64,000 bases of DNA from Botryllus schlosseri. Taxonomy: Eukaryota. The notes below the pieces were generated by a model. That model ran no database searches and was not told where the DNA came from. It was given only the letters and a program-made list of their open reading frames with translations. The number at the start of each line of letters is the position of its first letter. Positions within the stretch are counted from its first letter, which is position 1. Positions 1,822 through 28,470 of this stretch are shown piece by piece. The DNA lies in contig CM119371.1 of assembly GCA_051294905.1 (NCBI GenBank), positions 31,622,001 to 31,686,000 on the forward strand. Direction: 5' to 3'. Position numbers and translations under genes: made by a program.

Positions 1822-2698
1822 CAGGGGCGGGCAACTTGTCCAGTCGGCGGGCCGGATATAGCAAAATTAAGTACTTGGCCGGCCGGATTGCTGAATCGAT
1901 ACATTATTCGCCCATTTATCCACATATACAAGGAATAAATCTTATTTAATGGATGTATTTTAACGACAGCAATGTCACTTCAAAGCCATTTCTCGAATGA
2001 CGAAGACAATGTGGATTGAGAATAGCATTGTCATACAGGCGCCGACATGTCTGCTTCTCTCTGATCAATCAACACACAGTGCAATCCTTACTTAAGATTT
2101 CATGGCGTTCGATAAGCCCGATACCCGAAATTTACCAAGATATCAATTAATTATGGTTGAGTACGTGGCGATATAGCGTCGTTGTTGAACTGTGTGGCCT
2201 AATTAATCTCGATATTGAATTCCTGCGACCCGCGTCCTTTACGAAATTTAAGAAGTTGCCCGCGACCCGTTTTGAGTTGGCGACCCCTGGACGGCATAAG
2301 ATGTGCCAAACAAAAGCCTAGACGTGTGCCGTGCTACAAGTCGGCAGTTACGGAATCAAAAATAAGAAATATCAGCCTGGTGTAAATAAGCATTGTAGTC
2401 GACAAACACCATGATTACCACAAACGACATTAGGGTTGAGTACATCGTAAATGCCGATAATGCGAGTCTTCTCGCTTCGACGAACTTGCGCGTAAGCTCC
2501 ACTCTCGCACGCTGCGCAGAAAACTCGTATAATAACATACAGTCACTAAAATTTGACGTAGTCAGCAAGCAGTGGGGACTCTCGGCAGACTGGGGCCGCG
2601 GACCACATTATCATGTAAGAGGGAAAACTGTCCGCGGGCCGGACAAAATTCCCTAGCGGGCCGGATCCGGCCTACAGGCCATATGTTGCCCACCCCTG
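1822..2698. mobile_element. Composite non-autonomous hAT (Charlie/Buster-like) element containing a SINE fragment
   Basis: CAGGGGCGGGCAAC...GTTGCCCACCCCTG termini. TSD cactgtga/cactatga. The empty site cactatga is present in the paralog at 6118-6125. Confidence 0.8.
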
Positions 2699-4621
2699 CA
2701 CTATGAAATATAAGTCGTTCAGATTGGATTGCTTTTATTGCATTCAACGCATGGTAATGCCACGACTGATATGTAACTAAAGGGAAAATAGTGAAACGAA
2801 TCTAATGTTTAATGCGAAAAGCCATATTGAAAATCTCACGGTATGTTTAAAAAAAGCTACATCATGCACAGGTTCATTGAAATGCGAGCATTTCGTGCGC
2901 TGATTGCATTTCAAGGTTGTAGACTCGGAGTCGGATGAGTTGAAGTCGGTGTCACAGAAAATCTGTAGCACTCCTTGGATTCGGAGACGAAGTTGTGGAA
3001 GCCCACACTGGCTGGAGCTGGAGTCTAATTCGGACTCCGACTCAAGGTACTTTAAAATCGAACCAAATCCTTCCGAATAATACGGTCGCAGTTACAAAAA
3101 GTTTTTAAATTGTTTTTATGCGTCCACCGCCATGCAGATAGTGGTCTGAAGTTACAAGCCAAATCATTTCATTTTCATCCACAGATGTTTCAATGAAGTG
3201 AGAAATCGTATTTAATGAAAAATGTTCACAGTGCAAAACCTAGCAAGGTTTGTTTATGAAAGGGACGGAACGCGCACGTGAGCTCACGTTCACACCATTT
3301 CTATACGCCGTAGCTTGTGAAATACGTCAAAATACGTCAATTATATAGAGTTGCATTATCTGGCGCAAACGCTCATTTGCATTGTGGAAATATAGGACAA
3401 AAATTACGATTGACATCACCGCGGTCGTTACAATATATACTCTCAAGAAATACGAATGCTTTACTGCATTCACTTCGCACCGAAATGGTTATGTAGGCTA
3501 CGCTCTCTTTGCATTCACTTCTGTAACTGCATCCTGATCCAACCCAGGGCCTCCCAACCCGAGGCGTGCAACGCTACCCGAACAAGAATCTTCCATACCA
3601 TCAACGGCACGTTTCAATCATAATAAATCGTATTCTAGACCGGATACGTCATCACTAGATTGTGATGTCTTAGCTTAAGACATCCTTTCTATTACTCTGA
3701 AGTCTCGACTACTCATCGATATTGTAAGAGCGGTTTTTAAATCACTATAACCATTTCCCATGATTTGCACTTCTCGTATATTTTGAGGTCATTCCCCTCG
3801 ACCTCTTGAGAACGCGTCCTCATACTAAAATTTTTGACATCTCTCGATGAAAGTCTCACACATCAAAGTAAATGCATATATAAATGTGAGTATGCTACGC
3901 TTAACGTGCACGTGCGAAATGGACAAGATGCAGACTACCATAGTTCTACGATACGCAGTTCCATGAAATATGATTCATTACCAAAAAGTCTTTGATTCAT
4001 TGACGTTGATGCCACTCAAATTTCTTCATCGTCGTATATTCATTGCATGTCATTTTGTATTGTTAGCTATGCATACATTAATGGCTTTTATAGTCATCGC
4101 AACTGCGTGCAGACCAGTTAATCATTGAAATTGGCTAAAGATTCTGCAAAACCAGACACTACTACTACTATACGAATGCTGGTGTGAAAGTGTAAGGCGA
4201 AAGAAAACATTTTGCATGGAATGATCATCGACCTTTTCCTTTACAAGGCACAGGGGGTTCACCGATTTCATCTATTACTTCACCTGATTCTTCCTCAGCA
4301 ATGATTCGATTCGATTCGATTTCATGGTAAAGTTCTTCGTTGCTAGTCTATCCAAGCATTTGGTTACCAGTGTCCGCGTAACCAACACACATAAAAATGT
4401 CACACACTGCGAATCTCACGGATAGTCGCGAATTTCTATTTCGTGTCACAATGCCGCAAACAGTCTACAATTGCGATGTTACAATATTGAGACATTGCTA
4501 TTGTTTTATATGGATTTCCCACTGGAAATATTAAGTTGATATAGCTCCATTGATGAAAGAATTTCGGAATCTTGTCTTAGATGAAGTAAAGAATATCTTT
4601 GACTAGGACTAAATCACCATG

Positions 4622-9044: not shown

Positions 9045-9944
9045 TTAATGCGCGATTTTCAAATGATACACAAATTCTTTCTGTTGGCATAGACTAGGTT
9101 TGCTCATAGTGATGATGGTGGACTCAAGAACAGACAAATGAAATAAATTGCGACCCTTAGCCAATATAGAGAACATGTCCTCGTGATAGTTAGCAGCACA
9201 CGTATGATTTTCTAGTAAATGTTTGCCTATAGAAGATTTTTGACCCATGGCCTGGTTATGTTCAAGAACAAGCGGATTGTTAAGCTGCGAATTTGAGATA
9301 TAAGATTTGACAGACGGTGGAATGTGTTCTTTGATACGGTCCTGCAACCGTTTGGAAGTTCTTCCTACGTACCGACAATCGCAGTGGCACTTGAATTCAT
9401 AAATTACGTTGCATTGTTTTATAGCCGGGAAAACGTCCTTACGGGATGCAGGAAACATTGGTATCGTGGTAAAAACAACATTGGTTTTCACCGCTGGATA
9501 ACAGCGGTAGACTGCTGAAGTTATCTGTTTCTCAAATCGATAAGAAACCGGGCCAATCCAAGGAAGATGAATGTACACATCCCTATTTTCACGCGAAATT
9601 ACTTCGGGGGTTTCTTCTGGTTTGGTATCATTCCAATGACTTAACTTTTTACTTATTGCCCGCTTAATAACATACTCTGGGTATCCGTTGTCAATGAAAA
9701 TTTTACGGATGTAGTCAAGTTCATTATTCAATTTGACCTCGGAACAAATCATCAACGCCCGGTGAACCAAGGTGCCGATTAAATTGATTTTACGACTTTT
9801 TGGGCTGAAAGAGCTCCATCGAAGGTAATGACCCGAAAATGTGGGCTTCCTATAAACGGAGGTAAGGAATTTGCCATCCCGTTTCTCCCCAAGAACGTCA
9901 AGGAATGCCAAGCGATTGTTAATTTTAGTTTCTACAAGCCACAC
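9045..9944 (-). mobile_element. 5'-truncated Penelope-like retroelement ORF: RT C-terminus/thumb plus GIY-YIG endonuclease
   Basis: 299-aa open frame with LAFLDV, YRKPT, LVHRALMICS, NGYP and VIYEFKCHCDCRYVGRT..LQDRIKEH motifs. Confidence 0.93.
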
Positions 9945-11157
9945 ACAATGTGCAAGCGATAAGACACAATGCGATGCAATGAATTTACAGGATGATGCCG
10001 AACGACCAGTTTTAGTTGCAGTTGCGGTCTGTTAAATTGGCAACCAGCTGGGCTATCTGTCCCGTTTGGTTTAACTTGTCAAAATAATGCGATGCAGACT
10101 CAATGCAGGAGGACAAATGCATCATGACATCGAAAAAGCCGCCGTGTAACAATATAGACGAATGCAAATGTTTATTTGGAAACCACCGAGTTATCATAGT
10201 TTGGTTGTTGTTTCCAAAATGTTTTACACAATAAAGACAGTACTTTAAATGTGGTACTTTTGTGGGTTATGTATGACTATGAGACAAAATGTTGTGGGTG
10301 CCAAACTCCGAAACATGACGTGCTAATGAAAAACGGGTGTGCTTAAATGGTAATGTCCCATCGTCGTATAAATTTTGTATCAAATGGTAAAGACATCACA
10401 AAGCCATCTTGTCTGATTCTATCCGGGAAATGTGAGCTTTGTAAAAAGTAAGTCGGTTCAGGTTTAAATCGTTTCGTCACATTAATCTCACGCCTCGGTG
10501 AGGCCAATCCATAATTTTTTTGCTGAAACCGATAATAGGAACCACTTAAACCCGAATAGTGATTGAACATTAATGAATCAAGTTCGATCCATCGGTGTTT
10601 ACAGTCAAGTACCGTGCAAAAGCAAGTGCGGCCAACACCCCGTCACCTTCGCGTAAAATATGTACCAATTGATCTCATTGTGAGTACAGCTGGGTAACAT
10701 GTGAATATAAACAATAGAAGTGTAGCTTTTGTGTATGAGTCAGCAACTAATACAGAGATCTACAAATTTTTCTCACTAGACACTATACTGATGAGAAGTA
10801 CACACTCTCTCACTGCCAATAAACAATACTCAGAAACGGAATTTGGGGAAGAGTCAAAAACATATGTCTGCATGCACTTAGTCAAGTATTTATGAACTAG
10901 GACTATTGTAAACATTAAACATCTGTTCGACCAAAGTGGCTGAGCTACTTACTGGAAATATTTTTGATTTTCTCAAGTGGGAAACAGTGTTTGTTTATAT
11001 TTGCATCAAAGTTACAAGTGATGTTGTCACTTACAAAACCAGACGATACATTAACTGTTTCCTAATAATATGGCATAATTCCAAAAATTGTACTAATTTG
11101 TGAGGACATCTGTAATTTTGAGTTGATCGCGATTTGGTTGAAATTTTTCCCTCGAAC

Positions 11158-12520: not shown

Positions 12521-13439
12521 TGATGCAGAGTACAAAAGAAAATCCCGCAAAACATTCGATTTTTAATGATTTTATACTCGAACTGTTTTAGCCTGAAATA
12601 TTTATTTACTTTTGTATTTAACATTTAACGATGGTATTGATTAGAATACAGTTACCACATGCATCAAAATGCCTGCGCTTTGTGATTTGATCTTAATAAC
12701 AAAAATTCTAATTCGTTGCCTTTTATTATACAAACTCAGAATCAACCCTATGCCAGACAGAAAAATAGCCAAAAGTTTACTCTAATATGCTTTACGAAAA
12801 ATCAATCGAGTGCCTACGAATAACGCGTCAGAATATTTGATAAATAAATTGATAGAATATAACCTCTCAGTCGATGCCAAGCGATTAAAAATGGACTCAC
12901 ATCGATTAAAGACAGTTTGGTGAATATCCATTTCCTATAGGGCTAATCAGTATAACCATGCACAATGTTTCATATATTAGCAAATTAAAAACCATCACTC
13001 TCCTAACCACAAAATCAATGTTTGGAATGAACTATATTGCTTTTTCGAAGTTTCTTGGTGGGACAGATCCGGAAATATCAATTGAAACCTTGAAATAAAA
13101 ATCGTGCTATAAGTTGAAATCTAGCAAAACATCCCATTTTTATCGATTTTATACTTGAACTGTTTTAGCCTGAAATATTTATTTAGTTTTTCATTTAAAA
13201 TTGATTGGGATACAGTTAATACAGGACTGTGCAAATTCCCAAGTACCATGTACCAGCGATCAAAGACACTTCAGTAAATATGAATTTCCTATAGGATAAA
13301 TCGGTATAACCATGCAAAATATTGCACATAATAAAAAATTCAGAAAATCACTCTCCGAACCAAAAAAACAAATTTTGGAATGAACTATATTGATTTTGGA
13401 AGTTTCTAGGTGAGAGTGATCGGGAGTAGTTAGTATGAT

Positions 13440-13900
13440 CGGTCGTGATTCGCCATTGGTTCTTATGGGTGCGGCGGTGAGGTGCCGCGAAAACTCGTGG
13501 TGGTGATGGCACCCTTTTACACCCCCTCTCGGTGGTGAGGTGCCATGTGTTCTTATGGATGCGGTGATGATGGCACCCTTTCGGGTATAGGCTGCGGTGG
13601 TGAGGTGCCGCGAAAACTCGTGGTGGTGATGGCACCCTTTTACAACCCCTCTCGGCGGTGAGGTACCTATGTGGTGATGATGGTACCCTTTCTGGTATAG
13701 GCTGCGGCGATGATGTGCCTACGGATTCTTGTGTCGTAGTGAACTAACGTTGTGGATATAGGCTGCGGTGATGATGTGCCCACGGATTCTTGTGTCGTAG
13801 TGAACTAACGTTGTGGATATAGGCTGCGGTGATGATGTGCCCACGGATTCTTGTGTCGTAGTGAACTAACGTTGTGGATATAGGCCGCGGTGATGATGTG
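13440..13900. repeat. GC-rich subterminal tandem repeats: ~123-bp unit x2 and 61-bp unit x~3.3; mirrored at ~26906-27366
   Basis: ggtgccgcgaaaactcgtggtggtgatggcaccctt at 13481 and 13604. tataggctgcggtgatgatgtgcccacggattcttgtgtcgtagtgaactaacgttgtgga repeats from ~13696. Confidence 0.95.
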
Positions 13901-15009
13901 GCTGTCGTGTATTATTACACGGTTTCTACTGATTCGCCATGTGTTCTTATGGGTGCGGTCGTGATGCGCACTTTCAACCATCTCTCGCGTGGTGTTGAAT
14001 AGTCACCAACAATATCCGCACAAACGGAAACGTGGCTTGCAAGAGGATTTACGCAGTGCGTGCGACCTATATTTCGAATGACCTGCGTGCGGAATTGTTT
14101 CACGGCCAACCGCGTGCTACTATCGGTTATTACACTAGGCCAGTCAGTGCGAAATAGTTTGCTAAATCTAGGAATCACTTCCAAGGTAATATTTTGGTAA
14201 TTAGTTTACTGCAGAGCCGGCGTAGACGGCGAGTCGAATATCGACAATAACCGCGTTCGCATACTAACACTCTAAAAAGGTGTGAAATATTTGTAAAAAT
14301 CCTACGACCACTCACAAGATAACACATCAGAATAGTCATCTCTCGTGGTTTGGTGTTGCAAAGGTAGGAATTACGCATAAGTAATATTTTGGACGACGAT
14401 GATATATCGTTATTCTTATGGACGCGACGACATGATAACGTTACAGGTATAGGCTGTGGTGGTGATTCGCCATGTGTTCTTATGGGTGCGCTCGCACGTC
14501 GTACTTTCAAGTATAGGTATCTCTCGCATGTCGTATTGGAAACTCGTGTTGGCTCGCTCACGCGGCGAAATTTTAGTAATCAGTTTGTCGCAGAACTTGA
14601 TTTCGCTGGTAAGATTTAATAAGTAACGAATAACAGACCGCCAGTGTCGGTAACTTGAATAGCGACAAATTGTCACTTATTTCCGCTCTAACCCTAATCC
14701 TTTGTGAAGTGAACGCTTATTCAAAAGGTTGTGATATAATTTTAAAATCCAACGACCACTCACCGGATAATGCTGCAGACATAACAATCCCTCATGCCCG
14801 CTCACAAGGTAATATTTCGGTAATTAGTTTGTCACAGAACCGTCGCAGACGGTGATTCAAAACCAACAATTTGTCACTTGCCCGCGATCGCTATATGTTT
14901 CACGCCTCTCGAATAGTGGCTGACTTTAGTTGCGTGATAAGATCCATGAAAATATTCAATCAATGTGTTAGTTTGTCAACTTGAAGTGTAACTCACTACA
15001 CAAATCAAG

Positions 15010-16070
15010 TTGAATCGTATTTGAATGTATTGATTCGACCCAACTCAAATCCTTTGACAAATCCTATTAACGCGATCTGTTGAATCGAACGTAACCTGAA
15101 TATTACTGACGCCAACATTCACCCGCATCGGATCATTCACACATTCCACGCCGCTGTTTTAACACTTATAGAATCAATACCAACTATCTCTAACCCGATA
15201 ATATTCAATCATTTTGGTAATTTGCCAACTTTAAATCCATTCGCGGGATGTACTAAAGGTAAATCCAAATAATCCAGAATGAAATATTTGGACTTTGACA
15301 TTGCGTGAATTGAAATAGGTCTGACAAACATGACTATCAACTTTGATCCAACCACATTTCAAACTCAAACGAATTATTCACAACATTAACAATTGTTAAA
15401 ACTCTAGTTTCACTTACTTGATTATATCATTACAACTCACAAATTTGAATTAATTCATCCTGGTTGTATTCATATGCTCTATCTTTTTATTCAATTGTAA
15501 AGGTTGTTACTATTCTGAAGACAAAGTATTTACTAATCGGTGCATATACGATTTGACTTGGACATATTATATTTTGAGTATACGAGATTTGAATGTCTGA
15601 ACAATAACTGAGAATTATTTTTAACACAAATAAATCCGTATATTACAGCGTAAAAGATATTGGGGTGTCAGCAACTCTGTACGGTCGTAGTTACAACCAC
15701 ATTAACTAATCTGCCCAGGCAACTCGTCATGATCATTCCTGAAATCAACACAAACACGACCACTGACTTGAGTTAACCGCGAAACACCATCAAGTTTTAA
15801 ATCCGCTTGCAGCTGACGGATTATTCGAATGCATCGATGGGGAATATTATTGAACTCGTCGGTATTGTTACTTCAACAAATTACACCGACTGCGAAAGTT
15901 AATATCGAATGGTAAGACTTGATCACATATTTGTTGATCACAGACATGACGAAAAAAAACATTACCGAGATTTTATAAACTAGTCATATTACTCTACACA
16001 TCTATCAATATCAAAATGCGAGTCATCCAATTTTTCTACTAAAGTAACATTGCACTTTCGGATTCGAATT
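15010..16070 (+). pseudogene. Possible decayed Polinton minor capsid (penton) gene; mirrored at ~24736-25796
   Basis: Ends with ITLHIYQ..HPIF / TKVTLHFRIR (VTLHFR at 16044-16061), preceded by LTDYSNASMGNIIELVGIV. This resembles the penton C-terminus as I recall it. Many stops and frameshifts; by eye only. Confidence 0.3.
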
Positions 16071-16887
16071 CGGTATAGTCATACAAATTGTATTAAATCC
16101 AACATCAAAACAAAAGGAATTTTTTTTTTAGTTTATTGAAATCAAATCATTCGTCTTCGACTTGTGCTTTTCTAGATTACCCGCGACAATTCGTTTCGAG
16201 TGAGTTGTAACCAAAGTCAAGATATCTTTGTGTCCACAGATATGGAAGATGAATATAGCTAACACAATCACGAATCGACGTTTCAGAGTATTTCACGGGT
16301 GCATTAAACTTGTTAGTGTCACCTATCTAAAAGTACGCACGCGTTCGATTTCCATACCGACTGTTGCGATGTTTAGGATTCACTTACAATAACCACGGGT
16401 GAGGATTTAACATCAATGTCGTTACTGTCGGAATTTGCGACAGAGAATTGAAACATATGCACTTTACAGAGTGTGAAAATATCACTTTGAGTATCGAGTA
16501 CCGTTCGAAGCTAGCGATCAATTCTTAATCATTTCAGTAACTCACCATTGTGCGTGCTAAATGTAAAATATCGCGAGGTTATACACTCTAAGACTTTGAT
16601 TATTGTAAAAGTAAATTGTGATATGTTTGTTAGATGCATCCAATTCAACTAGAAGTGTCTAGTATCCAACACTCGTAATATCAAAAAAGTACTTGCTACA
16701 CTGTTATTTGCTAAACGTGTTTTGCATTGTTGTTCATTTCTAGTATTGATTGAAATTGTTTTTGAACCCTCAAATAATAATTCCCGACATGAAATTAAGC
16801 CGCCGAAAGTCGTTACCATCACAAAGAAACAATTTGCACGATGTTTACTAAATGTATCCTATAGTTAGGTGTACTGGAATTATTTGT

Positions 16888-16890
<3 letters not shown>

Positions 16891-16938
<48 letters not shown>
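16891..16938. repeat. (AC)24 microsatellite; the mirror copy is (GT)25 at 23866-23915
   Basis: Directly visible. Confidence 0.95.
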
Positions 16939-16940
<2 letters not shown>

Positions 16941-18599
16941 TCAGAGAAATTGGAAATTTTTCCGTTGTCATTCGCTAAAGTAAATGTCATCACAATACTC
17001 TGTCACTAAAAGACGTTACTTGGACGTGCTTGAATTCTAGACATAGTTCTGATTTACCCAACACAAGACCCAAGGACAACCCTAGTTTCAGCCGAACACA
17101 GATATCCAAAATATCACACACTTCGCTATTCCTAAAGCACAAACGCACGATACAAAATAATACTTGTTGTGTTGTTGCAGCATCATCACTCAACAATATC
17201 ACCCTCAATACAAATGATGTTTATGTGTAACATGCTATTGATTTGAACCACACCCACCTCACGGAAGAGGATTTACTCAATCTTTACAAAATGGATATTG
17301 ACCAACATCACATCACCGGATTGTATCTGTTTCGCTGGATACGAGTTATGTTAGTTTAACAGTAAACAAATTTCACCCTCTTGGATTATGAACTCAATGC
17401 GTTACAAGTCATTCAATATTTTGTTTGTGTCAACTAGTTACTTGGTATGTTACTCCACAACTCTTACAAAAGTACGAAGGATATTAACATCGCACTAAGT
17501 AATTAACTTTACTCGATATTCTCGCATTACGAAACTAAAGAATGGTTGGTTAGACTCTACAAACTGTTTCGATATCACAAGACCTTTATTGTCTGAATGG
17601 GTGTTCATGTGTCTTAAGAACCAAATAGTTCAACACAGCACTAGTACCAACAGAAACATCAGAGTTGTTTACACAAAAGTTTGTATGCGTGCAGTATGCG
17701 AATACCATGTGTAAGTCCAGCACAATTGTGGTATCCATCCGGGTTTAGTTAACACAATTTACGACACCGAGGTCACCTCATCTTTCGTAAGCCAACAAAC
17801 CAACCAAGGTTTCAGGATATGTCCGTGTCATAGCAATAAATCAGCTACTCCAACAACAGAGTACATATGTTTTCTAGTTACGGCGCTTACATCTTACACA
17901 CAAATCAATCTACTTTGCTAACAAAAAGTGCTGGGTCATCAAGTGATTACCCTAACAACAAAACAGCTAAATGTACTATCATACAAAATGGCCGTTATAG
18001 TCACCAACGGTACATGGTACAAGTAACAAGTCTCGAGAATCCAGTTATTGAAAAAACATGAAAGTGTTTCTCCTGCGCCAAGTCGTTATGTTGACTAAAG
18101 CGTATATTGTAATATCATGATCGATTTGCATTCGTTGGTCACAAAATGTCACTACTCTAAATAATTATTTTTCACTCAAACACAAACGCATACTTGTCGT
18201 CAATCGTTTTCATCAAGCACGAGTTCAAGAAACCTGCTACGACATGAATTGTTATTTTTTTTATGTTGTGTAAATAGGTAATAATTAATTTTAGTAACAC
18301 TATATCAACATCATCTAGTTGCGCGAATAGATTTACACGTGGTCTTGTGGTTTTAATCGAAGTATACAGCACGGTCTAATGTAGAGTCATCTCTACTGTA
18401 CAGCAACTCGGTAATCGAAATGCATTAAAATTTAAACAACGATCTTGTTTCGTCGCACCAAAAATATGTTTACTATCGCGATACTCTGCACAGGCCGTGT
18501 AAATCCTTTTCACACTCGTAATAGTATACCAACAGCTACCGGCGACAACGTTTAACAATACCAACGACACTAAAAAACGATACCTATACCCAAGTAAAA

Positions 18600-19380
18600 T
18601 TACCATTTTCACCTGGAGGTCGGTCGTTACCCGAGTAGAAATACCATTGTCCTTTGGAGATTTATCGTTTACCCAGTGTAACAATCCCCTTTTCACTTGG
18701 AAATATATTTTTGACCTGGATAACAAACCCCTTTTCACTTGGAAATCTATTTTTGCCCTGGATAACAAACCTTTTTCACTTGGAAATATATTTTTTCTCT
18801 TGGTAACAAACCTTTTTCACTTGGAAATATATTTTTTCTCTGAGTAACAAACCTTTTTCACTTGGAAATCTATTTTTGCCCTGGATAACAAACCTTTTTC
18901 ACTTGGAAATATATTTTTTCTCTTGGTAACAAACCTTTTTCACTTGGAAATATATTTTTTCTCTGAGTAACAAACCTTTTTCACTTGGAAATCTATTTTT
19001 TCTCTGGGTAACAAACCTTTTTCACTTGGAAATATATTTTTTCTCTGGTTAACAAACCTTTTTCACTTGGAAATATATTTTTTCTCTGGTTAACAAACCT
19101 TTTTCACTTGGAAATATATTTTTTCTCTGGGTAACAAACCTTTTTCACTTGGAAATATATTTTTTCCCCGGGTAACAAACCTTTTTCCCTGAGCAACAAA
19201 CCATTTTCACTTGGTGGTCCGTCGTTTACCCGAGTAAAAATATCATTTTCCTTTAGAGATCCGGCGTTTACCCAGTGTAACAATACATTTTCACTTGGAA
19301 ATCTGTCATTTACCTGAGTACCAATACCGTTTCACTTGGAAATCTATCATTTTCCTGGGTAACAATACCATTTTCGTTTT
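18600..19380. repeat. 41-42-bp minisatellite, about 12 well-conserved units plus diverged flanking units
   Basis: Unit approx aacaaacctttttcacttggaaatatattttttctctgggt. Confidence 0.95.
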
Positions 19381-19569
19381 GAAAACTAACCACCACACCG
19401 GGTCAATTTGATATTTTTGGATATTGTTACAACGGACAGTGACAACATATACACCAACAGCGACTCCGATACATTTGTGTAATCGCATTTTCACTTGTTC
19501 TGGTGCATCCCATCAAAATCGACGGTTAGCCACACACACACACACACACACACAATAACAACGCGCTAT

Positions 19570-20570
19570 TTCGATATGACTGCAATGTCCGGGTTCATGC
19601 TTTAGATTTTCCAGAATCAATCCGTCTAAAGTTGTAATCCCCCCGACTTTGTTAACTGGTTGATACACGGATAACAATCTTCGGAAAATGTAGGAACGCA
19701 TGCTACCCATCGTGCGCACGATTCCAGGTTACTTGTGATTAATTTCCTTGCTCACACTATACAGATTATACGTACAGGGATATGTAGCGGTAATCGGTTT
19801 GGTCAATACATATCGCCCCATCCAGTATGGAATTACAAACCCAATACAGGCCAGTTCATAACCGGATCCGGATATTCAATGCAAAGCGATAAAGCAGAAC
19901 CAATGACCAAATGTAATTAAACATATAGATTCACAACCCTTGATTTTTTTTTCGTGAAAAATGACAATACATATCGAATATACTTTACGATTGTTCAACC
20001 CTACCAAGTATTCACGTAAATGTGGTTTATGACATTACATACAATGTGTCGGTGTACAAATGTTGGGTGTTTATGCACACATCGGTATGACCCATAGACA
20101 ACATCATCATACCCTCCAGGACTTCAGTCAACTACCATTGGTCTCTCGATACAGCGAACGATACAGTATGCAACACATATCATTAGAGTGATATATCCAC
20201 AGGTAAATATGGGGACTGGTCACAATAATTGTACGACGCCGACAAATCGATGCACGCAAGGTGTGGTTGATAATAATTGTTTCATGCATCAAAGAGACAG
20301 CACCCTCTTGTAAAGGTTAACAGATCCCGCAGAAACACGCCATTTTGGATTACATTACCAAATCGATTTCAAACTTAAACCGAATCACTGGTGTTGAGAG
20401 TAGCGATACCCGATTTTTCGAATATTCATATAGACTTAGTGCGCGATCAGTAACGACACTTATAAACATTGTGAATATTAGTAATTCGAGTCGTGTCTAT
20501 CTTGTGATGTTTCAAGTTGCTAAAACCATCGAGTGAATCAGTGAACGGATAGTAATCTCGGTTAAATCTC
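19570..20570 (+). pseudogene. Probable decayed Polinton double-jelly-roll major capsid gene, running from the left arm through the spacer
   Basis: Ordered fragments across frameshifts: FDMTAMSGFML(D)FSR..KVVIP; INFLAHTIQII..ISPHPVWNYK..GYS..DK; TLDFFFVKND; GVQMLGVYAH; IDNIIIPSRTSVNYHW; TRFFEYSYRLS..NISNSSRVYLVMFQ. They parallel the motif order I recall for Polinton MCP. No search run. Confidence 0.4.
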
Positions 20571-20573
20571 GAC
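20233..20573. other. Unique 341-bp spacer (loop) of the palindrome
   Basis: Arm complementarity stops at ...cacaataattgt (20232) and acaattattgtg... (20574). Confidence 0.95.
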
Positions 20574-23500
20574 ACAATTATTGTGGCCAGTCCCCATATT
20601 TACCTGTGGATATATCACTCTAATGATATGTGTTGCATACTGTATCGTTCGCTGTATCGAGAGACCAATGGTAGTTGACTGAAGTCCTGGAGGGTATGAT
20701 GATGTTGTCTATGGGTCATACCGATGTGTGCATAAACACCCAACATTTGTACACCGACACATTGTATGTAATGTCATAAACCACATTTACGTGAATACTT
20801 GGTAGGGTTGAACAATCGTAAAGTATATTCGATATGTATTGTCATTTTTCACGAAAAAAAAATCAAGGGTTGTGAATCTATATGTTTAATTACATTTGGT
20901 CATTGGTTCTGCTTTATCGCTTTGCATTGAATATCCGGATCCGGTTATGAACTGGCCTGTATTGGGTTTGTAATTCCATACTGGATGGGGCGATATGTAT
21001 TGACCAAACCGATTACCGCTACATATCCCTGTACGTATAATCTGTATAGTGTGAGCAAGGAAATTAATCACAAGTAACCTGGAATCGTGCGCACGATGGG
21101 TAGCATGCGTTCCTACATTTTCCGAAGATTGTTATCCGTGTATCAACCAGTTAACAAAGTCGGGGGGATTACAACTTTAGACGGATTGATTCTGGAAAAT
21201 CTAAAGCATGAACCCGGACATTGCAGTCATATCGAAATAGCGCGTTGTTATTGTGTGTGTGTGTGTGTGTGTGGCTAACCGTCGATTTTGATGGGATGCA
21301 CCAGAACAAGTGAAAATGCGATTACACAAATGTATCGGAGTCGCTGTTGGTGTATATGTTGTCACTGTCCGTTGTAACAATATCCAAAAATATCAAATTG
21401 ACCCGGTGTGGTGGTTAGTTTTCAAAACGAAAATGGTATTGTTACCCAGGAAAATGATAGATTTCCAAGTGAAACGGTATTGGTACTCAGGTAAATGACA
21501 GATTTCCAAGTGAAAATGTATTGTTACACTGGGTAAACGCCGGATCTCGGAAGGAAAATGATATTTTTACTCGGGTAAACGACGGACCACCAAGTGAAAA
21601 TGGTTTGTTGCTCAGGGAAAAAGGTTTGTTACCCGGGGAAAAAATATATTTCCAAGTGAAAAAGGTTTGTTACCCAGAGAAAAAATATATTTCCAAGTGA
21701 AAAAGGTTTGTTAACCAGAGAAAAAATATATTTCCAAGTGAAAAAGGTTTGTTAACCAGAGAAAAAATATATTTCCAAGTGAAAAAGGTTTGTTACCCAG
21801 AGAAAAAATAGATTTCCAAGTGAAAAAGGTTTGTTACTCAGAGAAAAAATATATTTCCAAGTGAAAAAGGTTTGTTACCAAGAGAAAAAATATATTTCCA
21901 AGTGAAAAAGGTTTGTTATCCAGGGCAAAAATAGATTTCCAAGTGAAAAAGGTTTGTTACTCAGAGAAAAAATATATTTCCAAGTGAAAAAGGTTTGTTA
22001 CCAAGAGAAAAAATATATTTCCAAGTGAAAAAGGTTTGTTATCCAGGGCAAAAATAGATTTCCAAGTGAAAAGGGGTTTGTTATCCAGGTCAAAAATATA
22101 TTTCCAAGTGAAAAGGGGATTGTTACACTGGGTAAACGATAAATCTCCAAAGGACAATGGTATTTCTACTCGGGTAACGACCGACCTCCAGGTGAAAATG
22201 GTAATTTTACTTGGGTATAGGTATCGTTTTTTAGTGTCGTTGGTATTGTTAAACGTTGTCGCCGGTAGCTGTTGGTATACTATTACGAGTGTGAAAAGGA
22301 TTTACACGGCCTGTGCAGAGTATCGCGATAGTAAACATATTTTTGGTGCGACGAAACAAGATCGTTGTTTAAATTTTAATGCATTTCGATTACCGAGTTG
22401 CTGTACAGTAGAGATGACTCTACATTAGACCGTGCTGTATACTTCGATTAAAACCACAAGACCACGTGTAAATCTATTCGCGCAACTAGATGATGTTGAT
22501 ATAGTGTTACTAAAATTAATTATTACCTATTTACACAACATAAAAAAAATAACAATTCATGTCGTAGCAGGTTTCTTGAACTCGTGCTTGATGAAAACGA
22601 TTGACGACAAGTATGCGTTTGTGTTTGAGTGAAAAATAATTATTTAGAGTAGTGACATTTTGTGACCAACGAATGCAAATCGATCATGATATTACAATAT
22701 ACGCTTTAGTCAACATAACGACTTGGCGCAGGAGAAACACTTTCATGTTTTTTCAATAACTGGATTCTCGAGACTTGTTACTTGTACCATGTACCGTTGG
22801 TGACTATAACGGCCATTTTGTATGATAGTACATTTAGCTGTTTTGTTGTTAGGGTAATCACTTGATGACCCAGCACTTTTTGTTAGCAAAGTAGATTGAT
22901 TTGTGTGTAAGATGTAAGCGCCGTAACTAGAAAACATATGTACTCTGTTGTTGGAGTAGCTGATTTATTGCTATGACACGGACATATCCTGAAACCTTGG
23001 TTGGTTTGTTGGCTTACGAAAGATGAGGTGACCTCGGTGTCGTAAATTGTGTTAACTAAACCCGGATGGATACCACAATTGTGCTGGACTTACACATGGT
23101 ATTCGCATACTGCACGCATACAAACTTTTGTGTAAACAACTCTGATGTTTCTGTTGGTACTAGTGCTGTGTTGAACTATTTGGTTCTTAAGACACATGAA
23201 CACCCATTCAGACAATAAAGGTCTTGTGATATCGAAACAGTTTGTAGAGTCTAACCAACCATTCTTTAGTTTCGTAATGCGAGAATATCGAGTAAAGTTA
23301 ATTACTTAGTGCGATGTTAATATCCTTCGTACTTTTGTAAGAGTTGTGGAGTAACATACCAAGTAACTAGTTGACACAAACAAAATATTGAATGACTGCT
23401 AACGCATTGAGTTCATAATCCAAGAGGGTGAAATTTGTTTACTGTTAAACTAACATAACTCGTATCCAGCGAAACAGATACAATCCGGTGATGTGATGTT

Positions 23501-23863
23501 GGTCAATATCCATTTTGTAAAGATTGAGTAAATCCTCTTCCGTGAGGTGGGTGTGGTTCAAATCAATAGCATGTTACACATAAACATCATTTGTATTGAG
23601 GGTGATATTGTTGAGTGATGATGCTGCAACAACACAACAAGTATTATTTTGTATCGTGCGTTTGTGCTTTAGGAATAGCGAAGTGTGTGATATTTTGGAT
23701 ATCTGTGTTCGGCTGAAACTAGGGTTGTCCTTGGGTCTTGTGTTGGGTAAATCAGAACTATGTCTAGAATTCAAGCACGTCCAAGTAACGTCTTTTAGTG
23801 ACAGAGTATTGTGATGACATTTACTTTAGCGAATGACAACGGAAAAATTTCCAATTTCTCTGA

Positions 23864-23918
<55 letters not shown>

Positions 23919-26900
23919 ACAAATAATTCCAGTACACCTAACTATAGGATACATTTAGTAAACATCGTGCAAATTGTTTCTTTGTGATGGTAACGACTTT
24001 CGGCGGCTTAATTTCATGTCGGGAATTATTATTTGAGGGTTCAAAAACAATTTCAATCAATACTAGAAATGAACAACAATGCAAAACACGTTTAGCAAAT
24101 AACAGTGTAGCAAGTACTTTTTTGATATTACGAGTGTTGGATACTAGACACTTCTAGTTGAATTGGATGCATCTAACAAACATATCACAATTTACTTTTA
24201 CAATAATCAAAGTCTTAGAGTGTATAACCTCGCGATATTTTACATTTAGCACGCACAATGGTGAGTTACTGAAATGATTAAGAATTGATCGCTAGCTTCG
24301 AACGGTACTCGATACTCAAAGTGATATTTTCACACTCTGTAAAGTGCATATGTTTCAATTCTCTGTCGCAAATTCCGACAGTAACGACATTGATGTTAAA
24401 TCCTCACCCGTGGTTATTGTAAGTGAATCCTAAACATCGCAACAGTCGGTATGGAAATCGAACGCGTGCGTACTTTTAGATAGGTGACACTAACAAGTTT
24501 AATACACCCGTGAAATACTCTGAAACGTCGATTCGTGATTGTGTTAGCTATATTCATCTTCCATATCTGTGGACACAAAGATATCTTGACTTTGGTTACA
24601 ACTCACTCGAAACGAATTGTCGCGGGTAATCTAGAAAAGCACAAGTCGAAGACGAATGATTTGATTTCAATAAACTAAAAAAAAAATTCCTTTTGTTTTG
24701 ATGTTGGATTTAATACAATTTGTATGACTATACCGAATTCGAATCCGAAAGTGCAATGTTACTTTAGTAGAAAAATTGGATGACTCGCATTTTGATATTG
24801 ATAGATGTGTAGAGTAATATGACTAGTTTATAAAATCTCGGTAATGTTTTTTTTCGTCATGTCTGTGATCAACAAATATGTGATCAAGTCTTACCATTCG
24901 ATATTAACTTTCGCAGTCGGTGTAATTTGTTGAAGTAACAATACCGACGAGTTCAATAATATTCCCCATCGATGCATTCGAATAATCCGTCAGCTGCAAG
25001 CGGATTTAAAACTTGATGGTGTTTCGCGGTTAACTCAAGTCAGTGGTCGTGTTTGTGTTGATTTCAGGAATGATCATGACGAGTTGCCTGGGCAGATTAG
25101 TTAATGTGGTTGTAACTACGACCGTACAGAGTTGCTGACACCCCAATATCTTTTACGCTGTAATATACGGATTTATTTGTGTTAAAAATAATTCTCAGTT
25201 ATTGTTCAGACATTCAAATCTCGTATACTCAAAATATAATATGTCCAAGTCAAATCGTATATGCACCGATTAGTAAATACTTTGTCTTCAGAATAGTAAC
25301 AACCTTTACAATTGAATAAAAAGATAGAGCATATGAATACAACCAGGATGAATTAATTCAAATTTGTGAGTTGTAATGATATAATCAAGTAAGTGAAACT
25401 AGAGTTTTAACAATTGTTAATGTTGTGAATAATTCGTTTGAGTTTGAAATGTGGTTGGATCAAAGTTGATAGTCATGTTTTTCAGACCTATTTCAATTCA
25501 CGCAATGTCAAAGTCCAAATATTTCATTCTGGATTATTTGGATTTACCTTTAGTACATCCCGCGAATGGATTTAAAGTTGGCAAATTACCAAAATGATTG
25601 AATATTATCGGGTTAGAGATAGTTGGTATTGATTCTATAAGTGTTAAAACAGCGGCGTGGAATGTGTGAATGATCCGATGCGGGTGAATGTTGGCGTCAG
25701 TAATATTCAGGTTACGTTCGATTCAACAGATCGCGTTAATAGGATTTGTCAAAGGATTTGAGTTGGGTCGAATCAATACATTCAAATACGATTCAACTTG
25801 ATTTGTGTAGTGAGTTACACTTCAAGTTGACAAACTAACACATTGATTGAATATTTTCATGGATCTTATCACGCAACTAAAGTCAGCCACTATTCGAGAG
25901 GCGTGAAACATATAGCGATCGCGGGCAAGTGACAAATTGTTGGTTTTGAATCACCGTCTGCGACGGTTCTGTGACAAACTAATTACCGAAATATTACCTT
26001 GTGAGCGGGCATGAGGGATTGTTATGTCTGCAGCATTATCCGGTGAGTGGTCGTTGGATTTTAAAATTATATCACAACCTTTTGAATAAGCGTTCACTTC
26101 ACAAAGGATTAGGGTTAGAGCGGAAATAAGTGACAATTTGTCGCTATTCAAGTTACCGACACTGGCGGTCTGTTATTCGTTACTTATTAAATCTTACCAG
26201 CGAAATCAAGTTCTGCGACAAACTGATTACTAAAATTTCGCCGCGTGAGCGAGCCAACACGAGTTTCCAATACGACATGCGAGAGATACCTATACTTGAA
26301 AGTACGACGTGCGAGCGCACCCATAAGAACACATGGCGAATCACCACCACAGCCTATACCTGTAACGTTATCATGTCGTCGCGTCCATAAGAATAACGAT
26401 ATATCATCGTCGTCCAAAATATTACTTATGCGTAATTCCTACCTTTGCAACACCAAACCACGAGAGATGACTATTCTGATGTGTTATCTTGTGAGTGGTC
26501 GTAGGATTTTTACAAATATTTCACACCTTTTTAGAGTGTTAGTATGCGAACGCGGTTATTGTCGATATTCGACTCGCCGTCTACGCCGGCTCTGCAGTAA
26601 ACTAATTACCAAAATATTACCTTGGAAGTGATTCCTAGATTTAGCAAACTATTTCGCACTGACTGGCCTAGTGTAATAACCGATAGTAGCACGCGGTTGG
26701 CCGTGAAACAATTCCGCACGCAGGTCATTCGAAATATAGGTCGCACGCACTGCGTAAATCCTCTTGCAAGCCACGTTTCCGTTTGTGCGGATATTGTTGG
26801 TGACTATTCAACACCACGCGAGAGATGGTTGAAAGTGCGCATCACGACCGCACCCATAAGAACACATGGCGAATCAGTAGAAACCGTGTAATAATACACG

Positions 26901-27381
26901 ACAGCCACATCATCACCGCGGCCTATATCCACAACGTTAGTTCACTACGACACAAGAATCCGTGGGCACATCATCACCGCAGCCTATATCCACAACGTTA
27001 GTTCACTACGACACAAGAATCCGTGGGCACATCATCACCGCAGCCTATATCCACAACGTTAGTTCACTACGACACAAGAATCCGTAGGCACATCATCGCC
27101 GCAGCCTATACCAGAAAGGGTACCATCATCACCACATAGGTACCTCACCGCCGAGAGGGGTTGTAAAAGGGTGCCATCACCACCACGAGTTTTCGCGGCA
27201 CCTCACCACCGCAGCCTATACCCGAAAGGGTGCCATCATCACCGCATCCATAAGAACACATGGCACCTCACCACCGAGAGGGGGTGTAAAAGGGTGCCAT
27301 CACCACCACGAGTTTTCGCGGCACCTCACCGCCGCACCCATAAGAACCAATGGCGAATCACGACCGATCATACTAACTACT
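20574..27381 (-). repeat. Right arm of the giant inverted repeat (6,808 bp)
   Basis: Reverse complement of 13425-20232. Confidence 0.98.
21424..22204. repeat. Mirror copy of the 41-42-bp minisatellite
   Basis: Unit approx tttccaagtgaaaaaggtttgttacccagagaaaaaatata. Confidence 0.95.
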
Positions 27382-28470
27382 ATCGGGAAATATCAATCAG
27401 AACCCGGGAGAAAAAATCGTGTCACACGGTGTTATTATTAATTTTAAGAGATGTAGATGGAGTCGAAGTTGGACTCAGGAGCATTTCCACAAACTCCGAA
27501 CCCGACTTGAGCCGATATTTTATCCTCGACACCGACTCCAAGGCGTGCTAAAACTTATTTGAGACTCCGACTTCATTGAGGGTAAAACGAGGGAGACTCC
27601 GACTCCACAGCCTCCAAAACTGGAGTAGTATAAAATATGCATATTTGCACATTTCAAGTCATAATATGGGCTCCGCGAATGCTACACATCGGCTAATATT
27701 CTCGATATGGAATCGATTAACAAGGATACTTTATTTTGCTCCGCCCGAATTATCACACGCATTATTGAAACTCGCCTTATCTTAGGCAGTTACTCTCATC
27801 TTCGCCGTTTGGACAATCCAATCTGTAACAGTAGCATTGGCATATGTGAATAATAAAACATATTGACTTACAAAGCAGAGTAGGTGCGAATGTTTTGATT
27901 TTAGTGAACACTAATATTGAATGACAAATTCAGAGATATATGCATACATGTGATACAGGATAAGACTCGCAACATCGGCTTCCATCGCAATTTGGAAGTT
28001 GTATCTAGCAATGCATGCATTCACCAAATGATGCAATTAGCCTGTTTTTGTTGTTGTTGTTGTTGATTGTTATGTTTAGTAATCACTTGCCTTTTATACT
28101 GAGGTAGTAAGTAGCGTAATTAAAAGCGATAGCATTCGTTCATGATTGTTGCCGGAATCAATTGGAAATATTTTTATAGTTAGATACATTATCAAACTTT
28201 AGTCACGTAAGGCCTACTTGATTCATGTGTGTGTAACCTTTGGTTAACTGTATGACTTCCGTATACCACATCAATAGAAAGCCAGGCTGATTAGTAAATG
28301 AATATGTTCGCGAGGTGACCTACCTGTGATCGCACACCCTTGATGAGTCTATCAATTTCCTAGCTCCGTTCGTCCCGACAGGGCACTCGATTGTAGGCAA
28401 GTGCGTCTTTGTTGCATCTTCGTGTGAATTCTAGTTAGCAAAATTATAACAATTCAAAAATGGTACTCAC

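Follow-up and report, generated by a model that had tools for sequence, protein, structure and literature searches.

Polintons/Mavericks generate a target-site duplication (TSD) of 6 bp, carry terminal inverted repeats (TIRs) of 100-1,000 bp with a terminal tandem repeat of 1-3 bp, and have AG...CT ends (PMC4196379); one described example combines a 6-bp TSD with a 584-bp TIR (PMC3014272). By definition, Polintons encode a protein-primed DNA polymerase and an integrase (PMC5499653). According to a published model, the single-stranded Polinton folds into a racket via its TIRs before it is copied by the polymerase pPolB (PMC4196379, citing Kapitonov and Jurka 2006). TIRs of around 2 kb, which contain hexon and adenain genes, have been described for polintons of butterflies (bioRxiv 10.1101/2025.02.07.637071, preprint), and the term snap-back defective genome is used here as defined in PMC13506859. 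Here, we describe an element of Botryllus schlosseri located at positions 13425..27381 of a stretch of 64,000 nucleotides (the window; assembly GCA_051294905.1, contig CM119371.1, positions 31,622,001 to 31,686,000 of the forward strand). The element is probably a copy of a high-copy, gene-less, non-autonomous satellite of the Polinton/Maverick class and of snap-back type, which transposes in its entirety, as a near-perfect palindrome of about 14 kb. An autonomous Polinton with the same terminus, the putative helper, is found in the same genome.

A repeat search of the window revealed three adjoining inverted blocks spanning 13404-27402 with an innermost gap of 341 nt. The element consists of two inverted arms of 6,808 bp each (13425-20232 and 20574-27381), which surround a spacer of 341 bp (20233-20573); the inverted repeat accounts for 97.6% of the total length of 13,957 bp. 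The element starts with AGTAGTTAGTATG... at 13425 and ends with ...CATACTAACTACT, the reverse complement of the start, at 27381. Its ends read AGTAGT...ACTACT and are flanked by a perfect 6-bp TSD, ATCGGG, at 13419-13424 and 27382-27387. With respect to arms, spacer, ends and TSD, repeat search and end reading agree with an earlier annotation made from the sequence alone (the initial annotation). A gapped alignment of both arms (6808 vs 6808 bases) contains 7 mismatches and two 2-bp microsatellite indels, which corresponds to 99.84% identity; the arms are near-perfect, short of fully perfect, copies of each other. The absence of an intact long open reading frame (ORF), also noted in the initial annotation, was borne out: stop-to-stop frames that touch the left arm reach at most 152 aa, the longest lying within the terminal tandem repeats, and a Pfam scan of 17 of the 19 frames touching this arm returned no family at the cut-off, the two omitted frames overlapping the flank and the terminal repeats. 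An Rfam scan of window positions 13000-21000 gave no match at E values up to 0.1. The features of the element are as follows (window positions):

13419..13424, unstranded: left copy of the TSD ATCGGG (end reading)
13425..20232, + strand: left arm of the palindrome, 6,808 bp, non-coding (repeat search, frame list, Pfam, gapped alignment)
13425..13448, + strand: terminus AGTAGTTAGTATGATCGGTCGTGA with AGT twice at its start, a motif common to the family and its autonomous partner
13425..14161, + strand: arm positions 1-737, the sole part of the arm homologous to the TIR of the autonomous Polinton (77-92% identity)
13472..13900, + strand: subterminal tandem repeats with 58-bp and 61-bp units, of the same kind as in the repeat-bearing TIR of the helper
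16891..16938, + strand: (AC)24 microsatellite, with 25 units in the mirror at 23866-23915; this accounts for one of the two inter-arm indels
18678..19375, + strand: 41-bp tandem repeat arrays within the arm; mirror at 21429-22126
20233..20573, unstranded: unique central spacer, 341 bp, inherited (genome matches)
20490..20548, unstranded: spacer core of ~59 bp, recognisable in distant copies
20574..27381, - strand: right arm, matching the reverse-complemented left arm with 99.84% identity (gapped alignment)
27382..27387, unstranded: right copy of the TSD ATCGGG (end reading)

The window element belongs to a large family. A search of the genome (495.5 Mb, 219 contigs) with the terminus pattern AGTAGTN{4,10}GATCGSTCGYGA yielded 787 forward and 757 reverse matches vs 0 and 0 for the reversed control; among 100 listed terminus places, three were double registers of AGTAGTAGT. 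When the terminal 276 bp were used as query, inverted match pairs 12.6-26 kb apart were found on many contigs. Ten other copies (E1-E10) were fetched, each as two halves, and all of them are palindromes, seven with arms of 6.0-6.9 kb. The remaining three, E2, E8 and E9, were considered as short-armed forms, which was rejected, as they are palindromes with an insertion or rearrangement in one arm. All 11 palindromic copies, the window element included, have a perfect 6-bp TSD, every one of which is different; such copies had been named as a check in the initial annotation. AGTAGT or AGTAGTAGT was present at every terminus read, and none of the 11 copies contains a transposase ORF. A query of 1,981 bp from the arm interior returned 3,484 first-look candidates, and the 40 that were scored contained another 18 inverted pairs as well as two matches for which no partner was listed. 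Seventeen of these pairs are clean, with partner bit scores 0-14 apart at about 2,350-3,530, and one has a split arm. The palindromic copies that were checked thus number 29: 11 were examined directly and 18 through their arm-interior pairs as a proxy. The family comprises several hundred copies and, if around 750 copies of 14 kb are assumed, an estimated 2% of the genome, roughly.

The spacer reveals what is inherited in this family. Used as a genome query, the 341-bp spacer gave 428 first-look candidates, and the 40 matches that were scored all have 92-99% identity across about 340 bp, with nearly always one match per element. In six of the ten distant copies (E1, E4, E5, E6, E9 and E10), a core of about 59 bp (20490-20548) is retained with 81-85% identity, once per element and in a central position. 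Since spacer matches recur across copies and the core is kept in distant subfamilies, the transposing and inherited unit is the whole palindrome including its spacer, which does not arise as a fresh accident at each locus. The central unique part measures 820-955 bp in the distant subfamilies (E1, E3-E7, E10) vs 341 bp in the subfamily of the window element; the boundary between arm and centre has shifted over the history of the family. Three sets of paired spacer matches break the rule of one spacer per element: C6:10555296/10569800, which are inverted and 14.5 kb apart, C11:14938470/14947776, which have the same orientation and are 9.3 kb apart, and C3:13470630-13471121, which are adjacent and inverted.

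Autonomous Polintons were sought with protein families. A genome search with Pfam PF03175 gave no match, which proved to be a false negative, as a pPolB ORF later matched at least 78 places and a 1,295-aa ORF passes PF03175; family-profile genome searches can therefore miss Polinton polymerases entirely. No match was obtained with PF00770 (adenain), for which the controls also remained without a match. A match to Pox_A32 led to a Polinton at C11:~4506703-4526122, which contains polymerase ORFs, an A32-type ATPase (38.6 bits), an rve-chromodomain integrase and a caspase-domain ORF. One of its ends reads AGTAGTAGTATATA, the other is truncated by 59 bp, and no DNA similarity to the window arm was found. 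The caspase-domain ORF (C11:4522794-4523564, + strand; PF00656, 50 bits) has the structural genes on one side and the right inverted repeat on the other, and is possibly a cargo gene. The 556-aa polymerase ORF of the C11 Polinton was used as query and matched at least 78 genome places (261 candidates), which fall into classes of 92-100%, 66-68%, 62-64% and 37-38% identity. Open frames of about 1,290 aa are found at most of these places, and the pPolB family was confirmed by the Protein Atlas.

The class with 37-38% identity, comprising at least 18 pPolB matches vs about 1,500 family termini, is the lineage of the helper. One 37% match is located inside a pair of family termini 20.9 kb apart (C7:2049107-2069998). 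This C7 element has the family terminus, the TSD AATGGG and TIRs of 776 and 1,148 bp, which differ by one extra repeat unit and are 99.5-99.9% identical, and it encodes a 1,295-aa pPolB (PF03175, 29 bits vs a cut-off of 25.8), an rve core (61.6 bits), a chromodomain and an A32-like ATPase. A terminus of the palindromic family, C7:2049054, ends 52 bp from its left end (2049107), the two insertions being almost side by side. In all four further copies of the C7 pPolB lineage, the family terminus is present at the distance predicted from C7, in one case with a single mismatch to the pattern. Hence, all five examined copies of this lineage share the terminus, and an autonomous element with pPolB, integrase and this terminus, which the initial annotation had proposed to look for, exists. 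One of the four further copies, C9:5592716-5609013, measures 16,298 bp end to end and has the TSD TACGTT and TIRs with 99.1-99.3% identity. A 6-bp TSD is thus present in both autonomous copies of which both ends were read (AATGGG, TACGTT), and in 13 of 13 elements overall. Together with the AGT-repeat terminus, it upholds the affiliation with Polintons/Mavericks originally suggested.

Homology between the window arm and helper DNA is confined to arm positions 1-737, i.e., about 0.74 kb of TIR, with 77-92% identity. When all ORFs of at least 100 aa of both Polintons were compared with arm and spacer by tblastn, matches with E < 0.001 came only from pseudo-ORFs of the TIR repeats, at arm positions up to 1,134, and a comparison of the spacer with both autonomous elements using 7-base words gave no match. 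Because matches to helper DNA and ORFs are restricted to the end of the arm, the inner ~6 kb are considered non-coding and devoid of a recognisable Polinton interior; 89% of each arm is non-helper sequence. The terminus pattern was also found at 15 loci in IMG/VR, which were taken for chance matches as none resembles the TIR beyond the pattern.

For the length of the family members, termini 1-100 of the list, from contig C1 up to 33.2 Mb, were evaluated; among them are 33 pairs whose two sides carry the same 24-mer. Net of nested copies, 22 of these pairs measure 13.1-14.8 kb; the other 11 measure 3.3, 6.6, 12.2, 15.4-18.0 (six pairs), 31.9 and 55.6 kb. The lengths are thus mainly close to 13-15 kb, and those of the main cluster amount to 80-91% of the length of the 16.3-kb helper. 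The window element itself has 86% of the length of the 16,298-bp copy, in keeping with the near-normal length stated in the initial annotation. Judged by their termini, three family members are nested at C1:16768420-16810257, where three + termini precede three - termini and the 24-mers match (net lengths of 13.1, 14.1 and 14.7 kb), and a second nest is found at C1:32992130-33018942. The identical terminus pairs which are just 3.3 and 6.6 kb apart (C1:19317205-19320506 and C1:21592462-21599084) may be internally deleted derivatives of the family.

A comparison of arms within and between elements revealed that they do not evolve independently. The two arms of one element are 98.9-100% identical to each other in E1-E10, and in the window element the value is 99.84%. 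Between elements, left arms have a minimum, median and maximum identity of 84.0, 89.3 and 98.9% in 55 pairs, with 31-96% of the shorter arm being alignable and with E2, E8 and E9 trimmed to their perfectly paired part. Four-way arm alignments were made for three of the 55 pairs, from which gap columns were dropped (729, 710 and 1,279). Differences between elements that are present in both arms stand against differences in one arm only at ratios of 118:7, 525:6 and 983:4, and side-specific differences, which are shared side by side, were absent from all three alignments. Because the differences between elements sit in both arms together, the arms evolve in concert, and since the spacer identifies the palindrome as ancestral, they must be re-equalised again and again. 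The 64 mismatches between the arms of E3 were considered as a sign of greater age and divergence of this copy; this was dropped, as six differences lie outside gap columns and the rest are located in the 41-bp repeat array. A few arm differences per ~6,000 sites within an element vs up to 16% between lineages provide a quantitative handle on a process acting on paired termini.

How such a satellite might be propagated can be outlined as follows. The terminal-protein/pPolB machinery of the helper would replicate the satellite in trans, and its rve integrase would insert it, likewise in trans. A displaced or excised single strand could snap back into a hairpin of 6.8 kb with a 341-nt loop, thereby forming an extreme version of the Polinton racket. 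In this hairpin, arm would pair with arm, and mismatch correction, or an intrastrand switch in which the polymerase crosses the centre of symmetry, could re-equalise the arms in each cycle. The narrow length range may reflect a fit to the capsid or the replication machinery of the helper, as in defective genomes of other viruses. A more far-reaching version, which we put forward tentatively, is that the family is a heritable snap-back satellite, or hyperparasite, of an endogenous Polinton virus, that it has retained nothing of the helper but the ends for replication and integration, that encapsidation keeps it at 80-91% of the length of the helper genome, and that its arms are re-templated on each other whenever a single-stranded fold-back is replicated. 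If this is true, several hundred copies would be a natural record of the single-stranded racket or hairpin stage of Polinton replication, and they may damp the spread of the helper, as defective-interfering genomes do.

Several points speak against the interpretation as a trans-mobilised Polinton satellite. Mobilisation in trans is deduced from the shared ends, and a hairpin or extrachromosomal form is hypothetical. The inner ~6 kb of each arm have no detectable relation to the helper, and the roughly 1,500 termini include autonomous copies and any other derivatives with the same terminus, next to 29 palindromes that were checked. In the C7 helper, about 4.7 kb between integrase core and chromodomain (C7:2054972-2059703) are ORF-free, while both domains are in one 266-aa frame in the C11 element; judged by its sequence, the integrase gene of this helper copy may be interrupted. 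The length cluster could be a mere result of recent common descent, and the identity of the arms could equally be a consequence of gene conversion from arm to arm once a copy has integrated.

Such conversion is the main alternative explanation of the homogenisation step. Under this alternative, which is possible although we do not favour it, element and helper are the same, but the arms are kept identical by conversion in situ and the transposition cycle is not involved. Large chromosomal palindromes and the inverted repeats of plastids stay identical by gene conversion, and the concerted evolution of the arms is exactly what conversion in situ yields. Furthermore, copies with a large insertion in one arm keep outer arms with 99.8% identity (E8: 5 mismatches in 2,998 bp). 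However, the 0.8-1.1-kb TIRs of the helper are also 99.1-99.9% identical within a copy, and homogenisation of terminal repeats is a known property of protein-primed replicons, as exemplified by the repair of adenovirus inverted terminal repeats through panhandles. In addition, length differences between the arms in microsatellites and tandem repeats persist, which also speaks against gene conversion.

The initial annotation regarded the window locus as a single integrated copy-back defective genome, in which one end of a Polinton and ~7 kb of its interior were copied back on themselves. This is very unlikely, although the palindromic layout, the Polinton-type ends and the near-helper length are as predicted. 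Instead of a single product, the window element belongs to a family of which the genome contains roughly 1,500 termini, hundreds of copies share layout and spacer, and the nearest relative among the scored matches (C5:26904765/26913647; 3,533 bits vs a query self-score of 3,573 over 1,981 bp) is itself a palindrome. The 40 scored spacer matches argue in the same way that the form was inherited and not made by copy-back at this locus. The arm beyond position 737 matches neither helper DNA nor, pseudo-ORFs of the TIR repeats aside, ORFs of the two Polinton lineages, which is at variance with a Polinton interior. The family ancestor, but not the window copy, may well have arisen by one ancient copy-back event; this origin is unproven because the inner ~6 kb are unrelated to the helper.

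A Foldback-like cut-and-paste transposon of another superfamily, which is moved by a DDE transposase and resembles Polintons at its tips only, is highly improbable. The very long arms, rich in internal tandem repeats, do recall Foldback and Galileo (PMC3573991). However, the element has about 0.74 kb, well beyond the tip, in common with elements that encode pPolB and an rve integrase, the terminus is present in all five examined copies of that lineage, the TSD measures 6 bp in 13 of 13 elements and the 11 palindromic copies are free of a transposase ORF.

The palindrome is no accident of assembly, since ten other copies share its build, each with its own 6-bp TSD. Independent data are available for the centre of the element: the spacer stretch is partly present in twenty run rows from 12 studies, among them several organism labels and seawater metagenomes. 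Four runs were compared with the junctions at the level of contigs, none of which spans the whole 1.2-kb stretch, and the coverage gaps of X4, X9 and X15 are uninformative. A short-read contig of 425 nt (run X15, record 14) covers 20212-20630; the left arm/spacer junction is contained in X4 record 18, and its counterpart on the right in X1 record 4. Because contigs of other public runs cross them, the arm/spacer junctions exist beyond this assembly; these contigs bear on the junctions and not on the long-range structure of flank, arm, spacer, arm and flank. An artefact such as fold-back chimeric long reads can be dismissed, for although palindromes are a known class of artefacts in long-read libraries, the layout is present at 29 checked loci, 11 of them with both flanks and a matching TSD, and its junctions are crossed by contigs of independent short-read runs labelled as other organisms. 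Elsewhere in the window, a 328-aa open frame (9045-10031, - strand) has no Pfam match with an E value of 0.001 or less; on visual inspection, it is reminiscent of a retroelement protein tail with a GIY-YIG-like motif.

To our knowledge, Polinton replication has never been observed directly, and the protein-primed single-strand racket model of 2006 is bioinformatic. A family that consists almost entirely of inverted repeats magnifies any process acting on paired termini. The family also indicates that Polintons can have abundant non-coding parasites, that 14-kb perfect palindromes are tolerable at hundreds of places in an animal-sized genome, and that such parasites stay near the length of their helper, which bears on whether Polintons are packaged. 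A literature search for a palindromic or high-copy non-coding Polinton derivative found none, the closest item being the preprint on gene-bearing TIRs of ~2 kb; Repbase and subscription journals were outside its scope, and a prior description is possible. The phrase "non-autonomous polinton" was found in one paper, where it refers to Tlr1.

Among known systems, snap-back and copy-back defective genomes resemble the satellite in their symmetric palindrome, identical ends and near-helper length, and dependence on a helper is inferred for the satellite as well. However, these genomes arise anew in each infection from parental sequence, whereas the satellite is a heritable germline lineage with subfamilies that are 84-99% alike, of which only arm positions 1-737 match the helper. 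Daniell (1976) and Daniell and Mullenbach (1978) are said to have described adenovirus defective genomes with long inverted repetitions. Similarly, Kikuchi et al. (1985) reportedly found hairpin and palindromic deletion derivatives of pGKL1, in which one end of a protein-primed replicon exists as a hairpin monomer or palindromic dimer with the help of the intact plasmid. In contrast to the satellite, these are cytoplasmic plasmids of yeast, which are not integrated and do not form a multi-copy genomic family. Foldback-type elements belong to the MULE or P superfamilies and have TSDs of other lengths, whereas the partner of the satellite is a Polinton, its TSD has 6 bp and no MULE/P-type transposase partner was found. 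The satellite and Foldback-type elements such as Drosophila FB, Galileo and Tetris have in common that their arms are long and contain tandem repeats, that they code for little or nothing and that their centre varies (PMC3573991, PMC4079207). The polintons of butterflies illustrate that inverted repeats well beyond 1 kb are possible (bioRxiv 10.1101/2025.02.07.637071); however, theirs are gene-bearing repeats in otherwise complete elements, while the repeat of the satellite is non-coding and makes up nearly the whole element.

The closest affinity is to Polintons/Mavericks themselves, with which the satellite shares the 6-bp TSD, the AG...CT ends with a short tandem repeat and the presence of TIRs, and a partner with pPolB, rve-chromodomain integrase and A32-like ATPase is found in the same genome. 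In contrast to Polintons, the satellite codes for nothing, has arms of 6,808 bp instead of TIRs of 100-1,000 bp and measures 13,957 bp instead of 15-20 kb, and its termini (~1,500) outnumber the helper lineage (at least 18 pPolB matches). Because it agrees with Polintons in TSD, terminus and shared ends but departs from them in coding capacity, TIR length and total length, the satellite is filed as a non-autonomous derivative rather than as a Polinton.

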